Shown here one piece after another: positions 31,650 to 47,385 of a stretch of 64,000 bases of DNA. The stretch covers positions 32,001 to 96,000 of the forward strand of contig JAVLKG010000008.1 in the NCBI GenBank assembly GCA_032128875.1, in the 5' to 3' direction. Below the pieces are notes generated by a model that was not told where the DNA came from, searched no databases, and worked only from the letters and a program-made list of their open reading frames with translations. The translations under genes were made by a program, and so were the position numbers. Source of the stretch: Candidatus Melainabacteria bacterium 17Bon1m (GTDB lineage: Bacteria; Cyanobacteriota; Vampirovibrionia; Obscuribacterales; Obscuribacteraceae). Numbering within the stretch: the stretch's first letter is position 1; the number at the start of each line of letters is the position of its first letter.

Positions 31650-32081
31650 GATGTTGACCTCGTTTTTAATGGGAGAAACGGCCGCGGCGCCGGCATCTTG
31701 CCGGCTTTTCAACGGACGGAGCGCAGCCATCCTGGCGGCTTTTCAAGTTTCACAAACAGCAAACCGCCCCGACAATGCGACAATGCGACTATGCGGCAAC
31801 CATCAACGAACCCGTAGTCCGAGAAGAATTGCACGACTTGCCGATAGGCGTTTTTGGGAGACGATTTGCCTTGCTGATTTACTACTAGTGAAACTTTGAT
31901 TTCACCCTATCGGCAGCATGTGGTTCGCCACTAGAGAGCAGCCTTAAATGCTGGTGTGGTCCTACGCCGCGCGAATAGCGAACCTCGCGCAAACCGGACG
32001 GCATCTGTGCAACAAGTGCCGGCTGGAAGCCAGCGCTCCGGCCGCCCCCCTCCGGGCGAACGACGTTCGGAATCACCCCTA

Positions 32082-40544: not shown

Positions 40545-41096
40545 ATGAAAACACATCTAGCAAACGTTCTGGACCTTGAATTGAGCTGCTATCCCGACGG
40601 AAAGTTTCCCGACGACGAGCGGCAAGAAATCATCGAGGTCGGCTTGACCACGGTCGATCTCCACAAGATGGAGATTGTCGCCGTGCGCAGCATCCCGGTG
40701 ATACCGACGATGTCCTCCATCAGCCCGTTTTGTGCTGAGCTGACCGGATGGACGCAAGCGGCGCTCAACAAGCAAGGTGTGCCCTTCGAAGAAGCGGTTC
40801 GCCGCCTCGTCGAAAAGCACGGTTCCAAAAACCGGCTGTTGGTCACGGATTCCGCTGGTGATCGCAAGTTCTTCGATTGGCAGTGTGCAATGTTCGGCAA
40901 GGCGTCGCCTTTCGGCGACTACGAGCAGAACGTCTCGGTGCTCTTCTCCATCTACACGGAAATCTTCCAGAACGTGTCTTTGGACGACAAGCTGGAAAAA
41001 CTCGGACTCAAGTTCGAGGGACGCCGGCACCGCGCCGACAGCGACTCAATGAACATCGCCCGGCTGCTCATCGAACTGAAGCGCCGCATGCGTTGA
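40545..41096 (+). CDS. DEDDh 3'-5' exonuclease (ERI1/KapD-like)
   Basis: LDLELS, EIIEVG, FCAELTG and FEGRRHRADSD motifs; start ATG 40545 after GAAAGG. Confidence 0.9.
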   Translation: MKTHLANVLDLELSCYPDGKFPDDERQEIIEVGLTTVDLHKMEIVAVRSIPVIPTMSSISPFCAELTGWTQAALNKQGVPFEEAVRRLVEKHGSKNRLLVTDSAGDRKFFDWQCAMFGKASPFGDYEQNVSVLFSIYTEIFQNVSLDDKLEKLGLKFEGRRHRADSDSMNIARLLIELKRRMR

Positions 41097-41149
41097 AAAA
41101 CGCTCTGCGACGCAGCAGCAAACGAGGTCTCTTAATGACCAGTGAAAGA

Positions 41150-41197
41150 ACAGACTGTGCGGCATAAACAACCGCACAGTCTGTCATCTTTCTTTCT
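41150..41197 (+). terminator. Terminator-like hairpin after the exonuclease gene
   Basis: 13-bp perfect stem ACAGACTGTGCGG/CCGCACAGTCTGT followed by a pyrimidine tract. Confidence 0.7.
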
Positions 41198-41913
41198 CGT
41201 CCAGCCCAACTACTGCATATCATAAGGCACCAGATACGCCACCACACAAACAGCTATTTTTTGAAGTCAAAGGTGCGGCTGTACTTCGGATTGCTTTTCG
41301 ACCCAGCCACTGTGACGAACCTTGCGTTTCTACTGCGCATCGAAAGCGGTTGTAGGCGTTTTATTAGAGCTGCCGCCAGCTCGCGAAGGGATTAACAGCC
41401 TCTCACAAACGCGCTAGCCGTTGCGGTGCTGTTTAATGCACAGACCGATTTGGTCGCCGACCCGAGAACCTCACCCAGGCTGCGCTAGTGCTTCACAGCT
41501 TCAAATTTCGACGTACTTTCCCCCCTGCGCTCATTAGCGCAATTTCATTAAAAGCTACCCCAAAAGGAGGGTGGTCAAGAACTGAGAAGTACTACCACCA
41601 CTCATGATCGAGGTGTAGATCTGCTTATTTGGTTTTACTCTGACACTGACTTTTAGTCATACGGCTATTAGAGCTACCTAAGGTTGCTAAATGTCTTACG
41701 TAAGAGTTAGGGTCAAAGCACGTTTTATAAACACTCTTTCATTCCGGAAAAACCCAACCACTCTTCGTTTCAACTTTCATCCAACACCAATTCAGCCCTG
41801 CCAGTTCAGCTCTTTTGCTGTGGCGGGGTTTTCCGTCTCTTGTTGCAGCCCTCACTTAGAGCATTTTGACGCTCAGTTTGGGACCGCAACTACCAGACCT
41901 GAATGAGAACAAC

Positions 41914-42663
41914 ATGGCGAATCTACCCCTGACAGTTCGCTGGTACATGTTCGTGAATGACATCATTCGCGTCTATGCCAGATTGATCCTCAGGCGCCTC
42001 GACAAAATAGACTTCGGAGCTCTGCTCGGTGGACCCGGTTCAGGAAAAGGCACCCTTGGCGTTCGCCTCGGACCTCTCCTGCGACTGATTCTGCTCGGCA
42101 TGGGCGACGTTCTCAGGCGCGAGGATATCCAGAAAGAGTACGGGGACAGACTAGCTGCGATGAGCAAAGGCGGCTTGTTGCCCGACTCCCTGGTTCACGA
42201 AATTCTCGAGCGAGAGCTCACCAAGCCTGCATATGCTCGTGGCGCCATCTTCGATGGAATTCCGCGAACGCTGAGGCAAGCGCTTCTTCTGGAGCGTTCG
42301 CTCGCATGGCGGGGTCTTCGTTTGAACTGGGTGGTGCTGCTCGATATCGATGAAGAAGAGCTCGTGGAGCGACTGACGCATCGACGCACCTGTCCCAACC
42401 CCAATTGCCGCCGCACCTATCACCTCATCAGCAATCGTCCGAAAGTCGAGGGAATCTGCGATGAGTGCAAAACTCCGCTGATTCAGCGCAAGGATGACGT
42501 GCGTGAGGTGATTGTGGAGCGGCTTCGCAAATACCGGGAGGAAATCACTCCTCTCTGTAGCTTCTACAAGGCGCGCGGCGTTTTGTATGAAGTAAAGCCG
42601 GCCAAAGGGAGCACTCCGGAAGAAGTGTTCAACTTGGCCAAATCTGTCCTAACGAGCAACTAG
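41914..42663 (+). CDS. adk: Adenylate kinase family protein with zinc-binding LID and N-terminal extension
   Basis: GGPGSGKGT P-loop, GDVLR, GGLLPD, DGIPRT, CPNPNC...CDEC and QRKDD motifs. Confidence 0.88.
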   Translation: MANLPLTVRWYMFVNDIIRVYARLILRRLDKIDFGALLGGPGSGKGTLGVRLGPLLRLILLGMGDVLRREDIQKEYGDRLAAMSKGGLLPDSLVHEILERELTKPAYARGAIFDGIPRTLRQALLLERSLAWRGLRLNWVVLLDIDEEELVERLTHRRTCPNPNCRRTYHLISNRPKVEGICDECKTPLIQRKDDVREVIVERLRKYREEITPLCSFYKARGVLYEVKPAKGSTPEEVFNLAKSVLTSN

Positions 42664-42673
42664 GAGAAAGACC

Positions 42674-42895
42674 ATGGCTCGCACTTTCCATGTCCTCGCC
42701 GATGACGGCAGCATCGACAAGCGTGCAACCCGCGCTCGCCGCCTGCACGGACCCGGTGCCAAGCGCGTTTCCACGCGTCGCAGCACCATCTGGTCCAACA
42801 TCTCCGGCCTCGGTCCCGACGGCAAGGTGCGTCGCGCCAACGGCAGCATCGACCACGCGGCAACGCGTGAAGTCGAGCGCGGCTGGCACGACTAA
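42674..42895 (+). CDS. DGSIDK-repeat protein A (73 aa, 2 repeats)
   Basis: AGGAGA RBS overlapping the adk stop; FHVLADDGSIDKRATRARRLHG and NGSIDHAATRE. Confidence 0.85.
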   Translation: MARTFHVLADDGSIDKRATRARRLHGPGAKRVSTRRSTIWSNISGLGPDGKVRRANGSIDHAATREVERGWHD

Positions 42896-43190
42896 GCAGT
42901 GACTGGCGTCGAAGCGAAGGAGAAGGTTGCCCACCCGATCCCCGCTTCGGCGCGCAGCCTGCGGTTTGCTCAAAAATTTCGACGGTGAGTGCAGATACCT
43001 GGTTTGCACTTGCCCGGAAGACGCTGACTCTTGCGATGCCGGCAACGGCTCCACGCAGGTGGTCGGCGTATGTGGAGTACCGGTTCGCATGTTGCGTTCC
43101 GGGTTGGTTACAAAACCGACTAAGGGAGCCGCTTACAGGAAGCAGCTTACCTGGTCATGACAGCCCACTTGGGCGAAATGGAGAACTGTT
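42896..43190 (+). ncRNA. Candidate structured leader RNA, copy 1
   Basis: Collinear homology with 43596-43985; conserved loops on stems of different sequence. Confidence 0.6.
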
Positions 43191-43595
43191 ATGACGAACA
43201 TCAACACCACCAATGGCAGCAACGACCTCATCCCCGGCACCAACCTGACCTGGGCTGACGCCGCCGCGATGCACAAGGACTACCTGCGCGACCAGCGTTG
43301 CAAGGGTACCCGCCGCAGCCGCCGCACCCGCACGAACCGTTCGAGCAAGAACGACGGGTTCTACGTGCTGGCGGAGGACGGCAGCATCGACAAGCAGGCC
43401 ACCCGCGAGCGCCGCCTCTTCGGACGCGACGACCGTCAGGTGACCGTGCACCGTGCGCCGCAGGTCGACACGCTGACTTCCGATTGGGACGGGTCGTACT
43501 CGTTCCGCCCGGACGGCAGCATCGACAAGGTCGCCACCCGCGAGCGTCGCCTCTTCGGTGAGCCGGAGAGCTACCTCGCGAGCCTGCTGAACTAA
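43191..43595 (+). CDS. DGSIDK-repeat protein B (134 aa, 2 repeats)
   Basis: GGAG RBS; FYVLAEDGSIDKQATRERRLFG and DWDGSYSFRPDGSIDKVATRERRLFGEP. Confidence 0.88.
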   Translation: MTNINTTNGSNDLIPGTNLTWADAAAMHKDYLRDQRCKGTRRSRRTRTNRSSKNDGFYVLAEDGSIDKQATRERRLFGRDDRQVTVHRAPQVDTLTSDWDGSYSFRPDGSIDKVATRERRLFGEPESYLASLLN

Positions 43596-43985
43596 GCAAG
43601 TGAAGTTAGCACCGGAGCGTTGGAAGGGCTGCCCGCCTGACCGCGCTCCGGTGCGCTTCTTGCTGTTCGCCCCAGAATTCACGGCAGAGCATTGACGCGC
43701 ATCAGCGCTCGGCTTTGCCCAAAGAGTTTCGAAGCACAAGCAGCTACCTGAGCTGTGCGTGCCCGGAAACGCTGATAGCGGAGATGCCTGCAGCTCTTCG
43801 CTCCAGCGTTTGCAGCGTCACCGGGTGGTGGCGTTGCAAAACCATGACGTGGATGTTTCTGCGTTGTGGAAAGCCGGTTCACTTGTTGTGAGCCGGTTTA
43901 TTTGGTGAACCCGACTAAGGGAGACGCACTCAGGATGCGCCTTACCTGGTCATGACAGCCCACTTGGGCACATGGAGAAACTGTT
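43596..43985 (+). ncRNA. Candidate structured leader RNA, copy 2
   Basis: Same ordered motifs as copy 1 with two insertions; 29-nt identical block at 43941-43969. Confidence 0.6.
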
Positions 43986-44495
43986 ATGACGAACATCGAA
44001 AACACCACTGGCAACAGCAGCATCAGCGGCGCCGAGCACAAGCACTGGCTCCGTGAACTGCGCATCGATCGCAGCCTCGGTCTCGACCGCGGTGTGCGCA
44101 ACGGCAGCAAGAAGCGTCGGAACAACGAGGCGACTCGTCCGTTCCACGTCCTGGCCGCCGACGGCAGCATCGACAAGCGCGCCACCCGCGAACGCCGCCT
44201 CTTCGGACCGGACGCCACCCCCGTGGTCACCTCCGGCTCGGACGAGAACATCGGCGCCGACTGGGATGGCCGCTACGTCCTGAAGGACGACGGCTCCATC
44301 GACAAGCAGGCCACGCGCGAGCGTCGGCTGTTCGGTGAGCCCGAAGACCTGTACGGCCGTAACGCTGCCGACTACTTCTTCGGCGACGAAGAGGGCGATG
44401 CCGACAGCAGCTTCCACGTCATCGACGAGGACGGCTGCATCGACAAGCAGGCCACGCGCGAGCGCCGGCTGTTCGGTTCCAGCCTCTGGAACTGA
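43986..44495 (+). CDS. DGSIDK-repeat protein C (169 aa, 3 repeats)
   Basis: GGAG RBS; three DG(S/C)IDKxATRERRLFG units. Confidence 0.88.
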   Translation: MTNIENTTGNSSISGAEHKHWLRELRIDRSLGLDRGVRNGSKKRRNNEATRPFHVLAADGSIDKRATRERRLFGPDATPVVTSGSDENIGADWDGRYVLKDDGSIDKQATRERRLFGEPEDLYGRNAADYFFGDEEGDADSSFHVIDEDGCIDKQATRERRLFGSSLWN

Positions 44496-44571
44496 TACCT
44501 GAAGGGCGTCGGCACTCGCGGACTTGATGCGCAAACGCATTAAGCTCTGCGAGCACCGGCGCTGGTAGCCT

Positions 44572-44608
44572 TGAAAGGCGAGGGTCCTTCCCCTCGTCTT
44601 TCATTTTT
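44572..44608 (+). terminator. Rho-independent terminator ending the repeat-protein cluster
   Basis: TGAAAGGCGAGGG/CCCTCGTCTTTCA stem followed by TTTTT. Confidence 0.8.
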
Positions 44609-44752
44609 AGGGCATTACCTACTGTATGCCATCGTAATTTGAGCAAGAAAAAGAAGCAGGCGACCTGTCCGAGCATTTTCAGCTCGGGACAAATCGCCCA
44701 CTTCAAGACCATTCTCGCTAGTCGTTGTTACGACTAACGGGAATGCAAGGGA

Positions 44753-45334
44753 TTACTTGCGCTTCTGCGTGCGAGGCTTGTCGTCGAAACACGCAGTGCA
44801 CACCTTGGTGCTCGGCTTCAGCCCGCCCAGGATCTTCGCCTCATCTTGCACTCGGCAGAGAATCTGAATCTCTTCGAGCTTGAGGCTGTCACCCTCCAGC
44901 TGCGCGAAGACGTGGGCGCGACAGGCAAGCGCGCGAACGAGTTCGCCGATGTCACCGCTGAACTGCTCGCCCGTGAGCATCCGTGCGATCTTGCGGCATT
45001 CCTGTTTTGCGGCTTGCTTGAGCGCAAGAGAAAAAATACCGCAGGCCACCCGAATATCTCGCCAGGAAGATTTCGGGAAGCCGGCGAAGATCAGCTCGGC
45101 ACGCGCGGCGACGGTATTCTCCGGAGGCGACACACGTTCGTCTGCGCCCGCCGGGAGCATGTTGATCGCGTCATACAACGGGCCCAGACCGGCACGCGCA
45201 TTGAGCACGACGAAAAGATCGATCTTGTCGGGGTCGAACTCGTGTTCGTGAAAAACGCTCAGACAGGGAATCACCTTGATTTCGACGGACGAGCGAAGAG
45301 CAGCGATTGAAGCGGGTTTCTGATTGTCAGTCAT
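44753..45334 (-). CDS. Hypothetical protein
   Basis: 193 aa ORF with AGGAGA RBS. Confidence 0.7.
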   Translation of the reverse strand: MTDNQKPASIAALRSSVEIKVIPCLSVFHEHEFDPDKIDLFVVLNARAGLGPLYDAINMLPAGADERVSPPENTVAARAELIFAGFPKSSWRDIRVACGIFSLALKQAAKQECRKIARMLTGEQFSGDIGELVRALACRAHVFAQLEGDSLKLEEIQILCRVQDEAKILGGLKPSTKVCTACFDDKPRTQKRK

Positions 45335-45792
45335 GACTTTCTCCTATTCTCGTGACTCGTTTCACAGCCGGAACTGCGGTTGGGAAGCTAGAAAAAGCGT
45401 TGCAAATGGAGCTTGCGGGTGCTGCGAAAAAATTCCGGTCGGTGAAAACGAGATGTGGCAAAACCCTATGAAATCGGGCTGGGAAAGCGCAATCGAACCA
45501 AAGTATGATTGCCGATCTCGCGCTAAGTCGACCGCGATAAATGACTGGTTGCTCATGCACTGGCGAACGAACTTCAATGCTCAAAGACCGCACTGCGCCA
45601 GCCCCGGTTCTCGACAAGAGCTAACTGCAACCCTTGAAGACCAATACTTTGGGACTATGATGCAAGCTGCGCCATAATACCCAGGTATGATTTCGCCGCG
45701 CGAAGCTTTTCGCAAGTTAGCGCCAGCTCTTGACGGGCATGCAAAACCCGTCTTGCCTCGATTTTCTATTAGAATGGCTTTGTGTGGAAGGA

Positions 45793-47385
45793 ATGGACGC
45801 CGTGCGCGAACATCAGATCGTCATCAGCCTCAAACCTGAGCAGTTTCAGGAAGTGCAAAAACAAGCTCGGGCAGCTGGAGCTCAGTCTGTTGGCGCCTTC
45901 GTGCGGCAAAATCTGCTCAACTTCCTGGGATTGGAAGAATCGATCAACGCCGGTAAAGCCTCTCAAATGTCTCCCTCTGTCCAAGCTGACCCGGACTGGC
46001 GGTTTATCGCCGGAGAATTGCGCCGCCTGCACCGCGAATTGAAAGTCTTGTCCAGTGAGGCAACTGTATCGAACACCCTGGTGACCGACATAGCCGGTTC
46101 GAACAGTTCGATCAGTGGTCCTACCACTGCGACCGGAGGTCCTCTTCTGGCTTCCACAGTGGCTTTGAGCGAACCTTACAGAGAGCCGGTGCCGGAATAC
46201 AGCCAGCCGGCACAGCATGAAAACTTCCTTACAGATGGCGCGCCGATAGCTGTCGATGACTATTCGGACAATCTCGACGATTCGCTCATTCTTCCCCCAG
46301 CGCATGGTATCACCGGCGGCGGAACGACTCCTTTCTTCCAGACTCCCACGATGCCCAGTCGATCGCCTTTCGGCATGCCGATGTCTTCAGGACTTCCACT
46401 TTCATCGCCTTTCTCGCAGCATACGTTCATGCCGAATATCTCTCCTCTGCCGAGCGATTTGGGCATAGCGGCTCAAGCCCCGGCAAAGCAAGAGTTCACC
46501 GTCGACGAAGGAGATCCGGTCGAAACGACGAAGATTGAGGCAAAACCACAGCAGCCGGCGGAAACGCAACCAATAGCGCAACCCACAGCAACTGAGACCG
46601 CTGCAGCCACGCCCCAAACATCAGCCCAGAGCGCCTCTCAGCTAATAACTCAACCGACATCGCAAGCTGCGTTTCAAACCGCATCTCAAGACCCTCAAGT
46701 TACACAAGCTGCGCAACCCGTTTCACAACCAGACCAACGACCTGCAGCAGCAGCCCAGCTTCCTCCTGCAAATGCTCCCCAGCAACCTCCGGCAGTTCAG
46801 CAACCTGTTGCCCCACCGCAAGCAGCAGCACCTGTACAACCGGAAGCGCCGACTATCACACCTGTGCAAACTCGTTCACAGATTGCTTCTCAAACTCCAG
46901 CTGAGCAGCCAGGAGCATTCGCGCCACAGAAAGACGACATGGAAGTTCTTGCAGACAGAGCGTTTGCAATTTCACCAAGACTTGGCGCAATTGAGCCGGA
47001 AGTTACACTGCAACCGGCACAAAGCCGAAGCTTCGCCGACACTCTTGAAGAATTGCTCGACGCCGGCCTAATCAACCAGGTTTTGTCTCAGACCGAAGTT
47101 GAAGAGGACAATCCTTACGCCGGAGAAGTTGAAGCACCTCCGGAGGATGACCTGGTTCAGGTAATCGTTCAGGAAGTCGACGTACCCTCGCCCGACGCCA
47201 CAGATAGCAAAAACGCCGAAGAGTCCGATAACACGAGCAATAGCGAGCCTGAGGACAGTCAGAATGATCCGCCTGCCGCGATTCAACATGACCCTCCGCC
47301 ACCGCCTCGCCCAATTGGCGGCGCCGATCAATCTGGCGAAGACGAGCCACCCAAGCCACCTCCGCGCCGCAGAAAGTTGATGTAA
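45793..47385 (+). CDS. Pro/Gln/Ala-rich, largely disordered protein with N-terminal ribbon-helix-helix-like segment
   Basis: QIVISLKPEQFQEVQKQARAAGAQSVGAFVR followed by a long low-complexity region. Confidence 0.75.
   Translation: MDAVREHQIVISLKPEQFQEVQKQARAAGAQSVGAFVRQNLLNFLGLEESINAGKASQMSPSVQADPDWRFIAGELRRLHRELKVLSSEATVSNTLVTDIAGSNSSISGPTTATGGPLLASTVALSEPYREPVPEYSQPAQHENFLTDGAPIAVDDYSDNLDDSLILPPAHGITGGGTTPFFQTPTMPSRSPFGMPMSSGLPLSSPFSQHTFMPNISPLPSDLGIAAQAPAKQEFTVDEGDPVETTKIEAKPQQPAETQPIAQPTATETAAATPQTSAQSASQLITQPTSQAAFQTASQDPQVTQAAQPVSQPDQRPAAAAQLPPANAPQQPPAVQQPVAPPQAAAPVQPEAPTITPVQTRSQIASQTPAEQPGAFAPQKDDMEVLADRAFAISPRLGAIEPEVTLQPAQSRSFADTLEELLDAGLINQVLSQTEVEEDNPYAGEVEAPPEDDLVQVIVQEVDVPSPDATDSKNAEESDNTSNSEPEDSQNDPPAAIQHDPPPPPRPIGGADQSGEDEPPKPPPRRRKLM

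Follow-up and report, generated by a model that had tools for sequence, protein, structure and literature searches.

Two spacers, S1 and S2, in the 64,000-nucleotide stretch of DNA analyzed here (the window) are homologous copies of a structured RNA leader that ends at the start codon of a small gene, in an array downstream of an adenylate kinase (adk) paralog. With moderate confidence, we propose that they represent a genus-restricted, cis-acting structured leader that precedes each additional gene of the array, descends from a translational-coupling device, and gates translation. By sequence, the leader arose when the 3′ end of the neighboring adk paralog was duplicated and frameshifted. The reading frame of this fragment has been lost, the helices termed P0, H1, and H2 have been kept through compensatory substitutions, and the 3′ module is invariant. 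The features of the region are as follows.

41866 to 42663, + strand: adk paralog with an N-terminal extension of ~50 aa (PF00406 at 1.3e-29).
42562 to 42676, + strand: coding copy of the H1–H2 module, which spans the final ~100 nt of the adk paralog with the stop codon and the first nucleotides of the 73-aa gene.
42674 to 42895, + strand: 73-aa gene with DGSIDK/NGSIDH motifs and without a leader of its own (ORF list).
42896 to 43190, + strand: leader copy S1, 295 nt, of the “position-1” clade (alignment, model R1, MFE, tree).
42906 to 42953, + strand: S1 5′ stem, an 11-bp outer helix around a small hairpin (sequence, MFE).
42985 to 43013, + strand: S1 hairpin P0 with its ACCUG loop (RNAalifold).
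43079 to 43103, + strand: S1 helix H1, the CCGG hairpin (10 pairs, 6 changed on both sides).
43118 to 43156, + strand: S1 helix H2 with its CAGGA loop (13 pairs, 6 changed on both sides).
43154 to 43195, + strand: S1 module H3/H4 (consensus fold, local MFE −16.6 kcal/mol).
43191 to 43595, + strand: 134-aa array gene, Arg-rich, with two DGSIDK..ATRERRLFG repeats (ORF list).
43596 to 43985, + strand: leader copy S2, 390 nt, of the “position ≥2” clade, with extra hairpin insertions.
43609 to 43654, + strand: S2 5′ stem, an 11-bp helix without mismatches (sequence).
43734 to 43762, + strand: S2 hairpin P0 with its ACCUG loop (RNAalifold).
43873 to 43897, + strand: S2 helix H1 (10 of 10 pairs in the model-fitted alignment).
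43913 to 43951, + strand: S2 helix H2 with its CAGGA loop (consensus fold).
43949 to 43990, + strand: S2 module H3/H4, including the paired start codon at 43986 to 43988 (−16.6 kcal/mol).
43986 to 44495, + strand: 169-aa array gene with three DG[SC]IDK..ATRERRLFG repeats (ORF list).
44572 to 44608, + strand: canonical intrinsic terminator past the last array gene, a 13-bp stem followed by T5.

The 73-aa gene starts 10 nt past the adk stop codon, and the array repeats a unit in which ~250 to 300 nt from the 3′ coding end of the adk paralog precede a single small gene and a 3′ stem. The original prediction held that both spacers carry the same six elements in the same order on differing stems, and a sequence check located every one of them in each spacer. 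The 11-bp stems form from nucleotides 42906 to 42916 with 42943 to 42953 in S1 and from 43609 to 43619 with 43644 to 43654 in S2, and ACCTG loops lie at 42997 to 43001 and 43746 to 43750, respectively. Also common to both are TGCCCGGAA(G)ACGCTGA, the CCGG hairpins (43080 to 43102 and 43874 to 43896), CCGACTAAGGGAG followed by a hairpin with a CAGG loop, and an identical 29-nt block (43146 to 43174 and 43941 to 43969). On alignment, S1 and S2 are indeed homologous, at a mean column identity of 75%, and S2 has two large insertions whose extra hairpins leave the remaining structure undisturbed.

Four helices are supported in MAFFT alignments, which were not fitted to any structure. Within the 118-nt core (33 pairs), 95.5% of the cells are paired among 17 copies, versus 32 to 40% when the partners were slid, and 12 of the 33 pairs are compensatory, with both sides changed. 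None of 500 shuffles reached this level, a statistic that overstates independence because the copies share descent. P0, as folded by RNAalifold from 21 copies, includes 11 pairs, 9 of them compensatory, with 92.1% of its cells paired and none of 500 shuffles as high; the slid controls for the core and P0 together are 23 to 45% paired. The H2 helix (95.9% paired) has a base formed by GAC/GUC and AGG/CCU beneath a covarying hairpin that carries the CAGGA loop. When the alignment is fitted to the model, the number of compensatory pairs is 24 of 33. The cells also include 55 G·U versus 12 A·C combinations (110 versus 32 in a larger alignment), and this excess points to the gene-strand RNA as the molecule that folds.

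Folding energies agree with a structured RNA, as the MFE is −140.2 kcal/mol for the whole of S1 (z = −6.25) and −198.2 kcal/mol for the whole of S2 (z = −8.69). Other copies, when read by eye, carry different stem sequences at the location of the 5′ stem. An 18-nt block is invariant and the CAGGA and CCUG loops are invariant or nearly so, though the leaders are non-coding. Invariant columns fall mostly in the H2 base, H3, and H4 and in these two loops, and no obvious ligand pocket is seen. The order and spacing of P0, H1, H2, and H3/H4 are fixed in all copies.

The 3′ module places the start codon of the downstream gene in a helix. H3 is formed by GUCAUGACA pairing with UGUUAUGAC, and the latter strand includes the start codon (43191 to 43193 in S1). 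This helix has six consensus pairs, or nine in the window copies, and in S1 it encloses the hairpin H4, GCCC-ACUU-GGGC (43163 to 43174; 43958 to 43969 in S2). The Shine–Dalgarno (SD) sequence GGAG (43180 to 43183 in S1 and 43974 to 43977 in S2) is unpaired; in the MFE structures of both spacers and in all six local folds it resides in a 12-nt internal loop, and the AUG is paired instead. H3/H4 is recovered in single-sequence folds of six of six leaders, with local folding energies of −12.8 to −17.7 kcal/mol. Both H3 and H4 are invariant in all 17 leader copies and thus gain no covariation support within the genus; support for their pairing comes only from thermodynamics and from more distant adk junctions in the model-fitted alignment.

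Two candidates for opening H3 were considered and rejected. A uORF that would end at the UGA of the invariant block is not conserved, since 3 of the 24 non-coding copies checked have no start codon in frame and elsewhere the start position of the same-frame uORF varies, giving lengths of 6 to 106 codons. Trans-acting complements of the invariant 18-mer occur in the genome at chance level, with four sites at three mismatches versus three for the reversed control when the two leaders themselves are left out. The searches for a conserved uORF and for a genomic complement therefore yielded no opener of H3.

The leader is a local element. A BLAST search of the whole genome with S1 recovered S2 (E = 5e-20) and no other match, and model R1 scores 121.3 bits on nucleotides 43076 to 43193 (S1) and 120.2 bits on 43870 to 43988 (S2). 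By BLAST, the covariance model, and an 18-mer search allowing up to three mismatches, there is one locus in the 7.55-Mb genome, rather than the many unrelated loci per genome expected of dispersed REP or MITE repeats. In a test that the original prediction had proposed, a covariance model built from 17 copies revealed additional copies in related genomes and metagenomes. BLAST and model R1 together identified 22 distinct non-coding leader copies, including S1 and S2, in addition to one leader-like coding copy and eight distinct weaker adk 3′ ends (40 hits in total, representing 31 distinct rows). Leaders are present in 9 of 13 genomes of one uncultured Obscuribacterales genus and in four further metagenome contigs, and just 3 of 91 genomes of the family outside this genus give R1 hits, all weak. 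One of the matches, from genome G100 (31.3 bits), was treated as spurious: it has no ATG at the start-codon position of the model, and the adk-paralog match is on a different contig. Three of nine loci from a metagenome pattern scan (L098, L101, and L105) proved to be a single unrelated sequence that matched by chance and were dropped. By these sequence comparisons, the leader is restricted to a single genus of uncultured Obscuribacterales.

The proposal that the spacers belong to no known RNA class was borne out. Searching the whole window with the 4227 models of Rfam 15 gave no gathering-level hits, the best subthreshold match from a cmscan of nucleotides 41000 to 46000 has an E value of 1.3, and P36 matches within S2 at 19.7 bits, below its threshold of 36. 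A full-text literature search returned no paper on Melainabacteria RNA motifs or Obscuribacter riboswitches.

All 25 copies examined end exactly at the ATG of a gene for a small (94 to 169 aa), variable, Arg-rich protein. The expectation that the leaders lie upstream of DGSIDK-repeat genes is thus correct as to position, as every copy adjoins the ATG of a small array gene, but too narrow as to the genes, which form a broad, highly variable small-protein family with some members lacking DGSIDK. Orthologues of the 73-aa gene are found in G003, G007, and G008, and the 134-aa gene has orthologues as well. The 169-aa protein has only 22 relatives among 5.8 billion proteins, three of which have a source name, hypothetical protein, and the ESM Atlas gave no usable hit for it. 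Neither the 73-aa gene product nor the other small proteins match a Pfam or NCBIfam family. No association of the leader with metabolic or transport genes, as would be typical of riboswitches, was observed among these familyless downstream proteins.

The homology between the leader and adk rests on DNA and covariance-model evidence. The paralog scores 167.1 bits with TIGR01351, against a cut-off of 168; a second, canonical adk lies on contig C10 (190.5 versus 104.7 bits). The spacers match adk in collinear blastn blocks, and R1 matches adk ends at 27 to 46 bits. The coding copy at 42562 to 42676 is detected by R1 at 43 bits (E = 1e-7 within the window) and, in the model-fitted alignment, retains 10 of 10 H1 pairs and 13 of 13 H2 pairs but only 2 of 6 H3 pairs; its MFE z score is −2.48, versus −0.37 for the canonical adk 3′ end. 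H1 and H2 thus fold inside real adk-paralog coding ends as well, and the core in G001 actually encodes the adk C-terminus. The conserved loops correspond in adk to ordinary codons (His-Leu and Gln-Glu). For the 5′ half of S1 the match to G001 adk is weak (blastn, E = 0.004), and at the protein level the S1 open frame shows no significant similarity to the G000 and G001 adk paralogs (E = 1.2).

The adk-to-small-gene junction recurs beyond the leaders. In a second genus, this junction displays the full H1–H4 layout with the same GGAGAACUGUUAUG junction, and the g22 adk ends bear a GGAGAACTGTTATG junction. Among other genera, an ORF of 104 to 152 aa starts −3 to +15 nt from the adk stop at 11 of the 22 adk-paralog loci examined.

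The copies are also old. Several species are represented in each of the two leader clades, position-1 and position ≥2 (tree support 97), which places the duplication before speciation. Core identity is about equal within genomes (0.88) and between genomes (0.86), where identity is matches divided by the shorter length, a measure that is inflated for long regions and was used only for this within- versus between-genome comparison. The region upstream of the invariant core is only 0.55 to 0.58 identical, and the adk paralogs of these species are only 60 to 85% identical. S1 and S2 are therefore old paralogous copies. The original prediction had set selection on RNA structure against neutral decay of a duplication. 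Selection is upheld by covariation that exceeds every shuffle and every slid control, but the other half of this opposition requires revision, because the spacers did originate as a decayed duplication of the adk-paralog 3′ coding end. Decay in the spacers is confined to changes that the helices tolerate.

No sigma-70-like promoter was found in nucleotides 41500 to 45000 (0.7 expected by chance), and the only canonical terminator lies past the last array gene. A scan for terminator-like sequences gave 10 matches in the region versus 4.2 ± 2.6 in shuffles. A long GC-rich stem lies behind each upstream stop codon, directly so for the S1 5′ stem. The 3′ side of the S2 5′ stem, followed by CUUCUUGCUG, is a weak terminator-like match (43642 to 43655, tail CTTCTTGCTG), and the S1 stem was not flagged. 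Contigs from RNA libraries X2 and X3 cover the whole stretch, and the same libraries hold contigs of 148 to 182 kb; X18 provides a relative's 2039-nt contig, which covers adk, one leader, and the 169-aa gene, and X17 has short pieces only. Because the RNA libraries that span the region also hold contigs of 26 to 182 kb, DNA carry-over is likely and these contigs do not establish transcription, its strand, or the transcript ends.

The leader may represent either a 5′ UTR or a segment between cistrons. From the predicted fold, it likely acts in cis to gate translation, a role that would derive from translational coupling. We infer that the structure began as a coupling device at the junction between adk and the small gene, where ribosomes that reach the end of adk would open H3 so that translation of the closely adjoining small gene could begin. 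The duplicated leader would have been left without ribosome read-through, and H3 would then keep each downstream gene translationally closed until opened. The hairpin chain probably also shapes mRNA processing or stability. Translational coupling through a helix that sequesters the start site is established for rpmI–rplT in the IF3–L35–L20 operon of Escherichia coli and for the MS2 coat and replicase genes. The G001 adk-coded copy and the g22 junctions have the same arrangement, as the downstream start codon is paired there with translated sequence at the 3′ end of the cistron before it. In the 22 non-coding leaders, by contrast, the upstream strand is untranslated, no uORF is conserved, and the helix lacks its opener; the device has also been duplicated several times, carrying along ~250 nt that once encoded protein.

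Another comparison is with long structured 5′ UTRs and with RNA thermometers in which the initiation region is occluded, such as cspA-type leaders, ROSE, and fourU elements. These share with S1 and S2 a cis-acting leader of several hundred nucleotides with several hairpins, the last of which is at the initiation region. The ROSE and fourU elements differ in how they do so: in both spacers and all six folds here, no U-rich or UUGCU anti-SD pairs with the SD, which is free while only the AUG and its flanks are paired, and Rfam gave no thermometer hit. Riboswitches and ribosomal-protein leaders likewise are conserved, covarying multi-helix leaders directly upstream of an ORF with an occluding terminal helix, but the present leader differs from them in lacking an Rfam match, in having its invariant positions mostly in helices, and in being confined to one genus. 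Intercistronic stabilizer hairpins and REP-like elements are known from polycistronic operons and resemble the leader in placing stable GC-rich stems between cistrons, straight after stop codons. The leader differs from such elements in having one locus per genome, a fixed order of specific helices, and invariant loops.

Several other explanations must be weighed against a translational gate. S1 and S2 might be sensor RNAs, either riboswitches or protein-binding platforms, wherein a ligand or factor recognizes the invariant helices and loops and opens or closes H3; candidate factors are the Arg-rich small proteins, acting by autoregulation, or the adk paralog. The multi-helix architecture, the occluded start codon, and the invariance of the 18-nt block and of the CAGGA and CCUG loops in non-coding RNA fit this view, and one common trans factor would account for the same sequence being kept in all copies. 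Arg-rich peptides bind RNA hairpins in other systems, and the downstream proteins have Arg-rich tracts. Nevertheless, we regard a sensor as unlikely, given that the invariant nucleotides lie mostly in helices rather than in the junctions or bulges typical of aptamers, that the RNA derives from coding sequence whose conserved loops were adk codons, and that neither a metabolic or transport gene nor an Rfam family is associated with it. It is slightly more doubtful still that the exapted adk-ORF structure, copied with each array gene, is a platform for a trans factor (with the Arg-rich small proteins or the kinase paralog as the likeliest partners) and so a new regulatory RNA class; if true, the array would be a self-regulating RNA–protein module diversifying by tandem duplication. 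Equally doubtful to us is that the spacers are generic processing or stability hairpins and partial terminators, whose stems set relative cistron amounts with no specific fold required and whose 3′ block is conserved as a translation-initiation region. Such a role matches chains of independent stable hairpins, the gain of whole hairpins by S2, the GC-rich stem past each upstream stop codon with its terminator-like match in S2, and the single canonical terminator after the last gene. It does not call for invariant ACCUG and CAGGA loops and an 18-nt block across species whose adk paralogs have diverged so far, for helices in fixed order and spacing, or for a start codon that is specifically paired.

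The invariant block also includes a perfect 8-bp palindrome, GTCATGAC, ~35 nt upstream of each ATG, which raises the prospect of a DNA-level promoter or operator that binds a dimeric regulator, with the hairpins as incidental inverted repeats. If the 5′ stems terminate transcription, a separate promoter might be required for every array gene, but the sigma-70-like scan was empty, the asymmetry between G·U and A·C is not expected of a DNA inverted repeat, and three helices show compensatory changes. Moreover, the palindrome arises because the 5′ strand of H3 must complement AUGAC at the start codon. We therefore judge such a site very improbable. Least credible is the view that segmental duplication left a relic without function, whose copies resemble one another through gene conversion or recent origin. 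In its favor, the spacers can be shown to be pseudo-copies of the adk 3′ end, tandem repeats readily undergo conversion, and the arrays break assemblies, with several contigs ending inside them. This reading is disfavored by the multi-species clades, by identity that is no higher within genomes than between them, by an invariant core beside a divergent upstream region, and by the 92 to 96% of pairing kept with compensatory changes, versus 23 to 45% in slid controls.

These findings supply a structured RNA motif that is well supported and has no Rfam entry. It comes from the Melainabacteria (Vampirovibrionia), a lineage for which we know of almost no experimental RNA biology. Its origin is unusual, in that an RNA structure in the 3′ end of a protein-coding gene outlived the reading frame and was multiplied as a non-coding leader. 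The occurrence of the same sequence in coding and non-coding form offers a natural experiment that separates RNA-level from protein-level constraint. The analysis also flags a conserved, tightly coupled gene pair, the adk paralog and a small Arg-rich protein, across the Obscuribacteraceae.

The spacers lie within a small gene array in the source genome (G000; assembly of 7.55 Mb in 35 contigs), and the window corresponds to positions 32001 to 96000 of its contig C8.

Features of the array and its surroundings (window positions)
41866-42663, + strand, adenylate kinase gene (adk paralog; PF00406, 1.3e-29)
42674-42895, + strand, 73-aa gene directly after adk
42896-43190, + strand, spacer S1
43191-43595, + strand, 134-aa gene
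43596-43985, + strand, spacer S2
43986-44495, + strand, 169-aa gene
44572-44603, + strand, canonical terminator, then T5
45730-47385, + strand, 551-aa ORF downstream of the array, with much low-complexity sequence of Pro, Gln, Ala, and Thr

The window kinase is a paralog; a second adk gene on contig C10 scores higher (190.5 versus 104.7 bits). The 73-aa gene has no leader and resembles a short DGSIDK-family gene; it is found in G000 and its relatives G003, G007, and G008 but is missing from G001, G004, and G010, where adk is followed directly by the first leader or gene.

The original prediction held that S1 and S2 are homologous copies of a structured RNA belonging to no recognized class. Every structural element listed for the two spacers was found in place; in their alignment, column identity is 75% and S2 contains two large insertions. 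A search of Rfam matched no family to the leader, and a full-text literature search found nothing on a Melainabacteria RNA motif or an Obscuribacter riboswitch. When compared by BLAST with its own genome, S1 matches only S2 (E = 5e-20). The same search with S2 against G000 and 60 relatives yielded several tandem copies, confined to genomes of the same genus. The 17 leader copies located in eight genomes each stop immediately before the ATG of an ORF of 96 to 169 aa.

For these 17 copies, the final ~135 nt were aligned with plain MAFFT and folded with RNAalifold, which predicts a core of four helices. H1 is the CCGG hairpin (10 pairs), and H2 (13 pairs) includes GAC/GUC and AGG/CCU pairings beneath a CAGGA-loop hairpin. 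H3 is formed by AUGACA pairing with UGUUAU and extends into the start codon, and H4 has the form GCCC-N4/5-GGGC. In this alignment 95.5% of cells are paired, versus 32 to 40% with slid partners. The proposal that the stems covary is borne out, wherein 12 of 33 core pairs are altered on both sides compared with 6.7 ± 1.3 in shuffles, and none of 500 shuffles is as high. The observed value for further pair types was attained by 13 of 500 shuffles. H3 and H4 are invariant and therefore provide no covariation evidence within the genus. The ACCUG-loop hairpin P0 (MAFFT, 21 copies) has 11 pairs, 9 of them compensatory, with 92.1% of cells paired, and none of 500 shuffles equaled the observed values on any of the five measures. 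In a 31-row alignment, which is model-fitted and leans toward the covariance model R1, compensatory changes occur in 24 of 33 pairs, with 94% of cells paired. The excess of G·U over A·C cells (55 versus 12; 110 versus 32 in the larger alignment) points to an RNA made from the gene strand rather than a DNA inverted repeat.

H1, H2, and H3/H4 recur in the whole-spacer folds of both S1 (−140.2 kcal/mol, z = −6.25 versus shuffles) and S2 (−198.2 kcal/mol, z = −8.69), which are much more stable than shuffles. H3 is longer in the window copies, with 9 pairs (GUCAUGACA with UGUUAUGAC), and the predicted fold pairs the AUG while placing the SD sequence GGAG within a 12-nt internal loop. Local folding energies for six leaders range from −12.8 to −17.7 kcal/mol. 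These analyses establish the leader as a conserved multi-helix fold of the gene strand, with a start codon that is predicted to be paired.

R1 (118 positions, 33 pairs) matches 9 of 13 genomes of the genus (E ≤ 0.001); those lacking a match (G005, G006, G009, and G011) are 79 to 93% complete. Among 104 genomes of the family, matches outside the genus occur in just three, all weak. Two of these (G116 and G117, 40–41 bits) are the adk 3′ junctions of the respective genomes, and the 31-bit match in G100 was treated as spurious. Scanning metagenomes for the invariant block gave nine loci, of which three are one unrelated sequence matched by chance, two duplicate genomes already included, and four (L097, L099, L102, and L104) contribute additional copies. 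As anticipated, the model recovered further leaders; its 40 matches comprise 31 distinct rows, namely 22 noncoding leaders, one leader-like coding copy, and eight weaker adk 3′ ends. The G007 array (contig C1, L053) runs off the contig with one leader visible, and the near-identical 265-kb metagenome contig L097 carries two leaders and two genes. Since several arrays, including that of G007, lie at contig ends, counts from draft genomes give minimum copy numbers. A divergent leader on G012 contig C185 (L063; 58.6 bits) has wholly lost H4 while retaining H1, H2, and H3, and it also precedes a family gene. The motif is confined to one uncultured genus.

The leader fold derives from coding sequence. 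The first "leader" core of G001 is coding sequence, read in frame as the C-terminus of the adk paralog and ending in KSTKGSTPQEVLNLVMTALSGN and a stop codon. By blastn, the spacers match adk 3′ ends in collinear blocks, with E values of 1e-10 to 1e-22 for leader cores against the G001 adk. An upstream spacer block matches the region of adk encoding CDACKGPLIQ; for the first leader of G010, E is 1e-9 with the adk of G004 and 2e-7 with that of G010 itself, for the first leader of G007 it is 3.6e-5, and for S1 a weak 0.004. R1 matches adk-paralog 3′ ends at 27 to 46 bits, including the coding end in the window (42562-42676; 43 bits, E = 1e-7). In the model-fitted alignment, adk coding ends form 9 to 10 of 10 H1 pairs and 10 to 13 of 13 H2 pairs, and only 2 of 6 H3 pairs where the 73-aa gene follows. 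In g22, another genus, the adk paralog ends with ACAGCCCTCCAGGGCTAA; next come GAAGGAGAACTGTTATG and a 120-aa gene, and by eye its H3/H4 layout and junction are the same as in leaders. The loops correspond to kinase codons (ACCUG, His-Leu; CAGGA, Gln-Glu). The leaders carry frameshifts with respect to adk, and no similarity between leader and adk is detectable at the protein level.

Across Obscuribacteraceae, the adk paralog, which carries an N-terminal extension, is matched in 93 of 104 genomes (E ≤ 1e-30), many with two matches. At 11 of the 22 loci examined from other genera (L116–L137), an ORF of 104 to 152 aa begins −3 to +15 nt from the adk stop, and thus the two genes are tightly juxtaposed. 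The L126 ORF recognizably belongs to the same small-protein family as the array genes. The adk paralog and its adjoining small ORF therefore look like a conserved coupled gene pair. In many genera, the 3′ coding ends of adk paralogs tend to fold more stably than shuffles (z ≤ −2 in 12 of 23 tested, down to −5.95), and the canonical adk 3′ end of G000 shows no structure beyond shuffles (z = −0.37).

A tree built from 24 distinct spacers has two clades (SH-aLRT 97 for both): "position-1", where the G001 coding copy falls, and "position ≥ 2". Each clade contains several species, which makes S1 and S2 old paralogs. Copies from one genome are no more alike in the core (identity 0.88) than copies from different genomes (0.86), which argues against homogenization by gene conversion. 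The 18-nt block ACCTGGTCATGACAGCCC is identical in 17 of 17 aligned copies, despite adk paralogs that share only 60 to 85% protein identity with that of G000.

The expectation that leaders precede DGSIDK-repeat genes holds in part: a small array gene does follow, but DGSIDK is missing from some of the encoded proteins. These proteins are of at least four very different types, with Arg-rich tracts and short RExRLFG-like motifs in common. The 169-aa protein has just 22 relatives among 5.8 billion proteins, and the three with a source name are all called "hypothetical protein". RNA-library contigs span the locus, and the source libraries evidently contain DNA. Runs X2 and X3, labeled transcriptomic, give contigs of 148 to 182 kb identical to the window; with genomic DNA evident, they are unusable as expression evidence.

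H3 may formerly have been a translational-coupling helix, opened by ribosomes completing adk. In the duplicated noncoding leaders, no ribosome would reach H3. No conserved uORF was found in the leaders, nor was any RNA complementary to the invariant 18-nt block found elsewhere in the genome, and so H3 should keep the gene closed until some trigger acts. The hairpin chain and 5′ stems would probably influence processing or stability. In its proposed mode of action, the leader is nearest to a coupling or occlusion helix, but its upstream strand is not translated; an RNA thermometer would have a paired SD, which the predicted fold lacks. As modeled, this cis-regulatory structured leader represents a familiar kind of element, though the RNA motif itself is new and its origin unusual.
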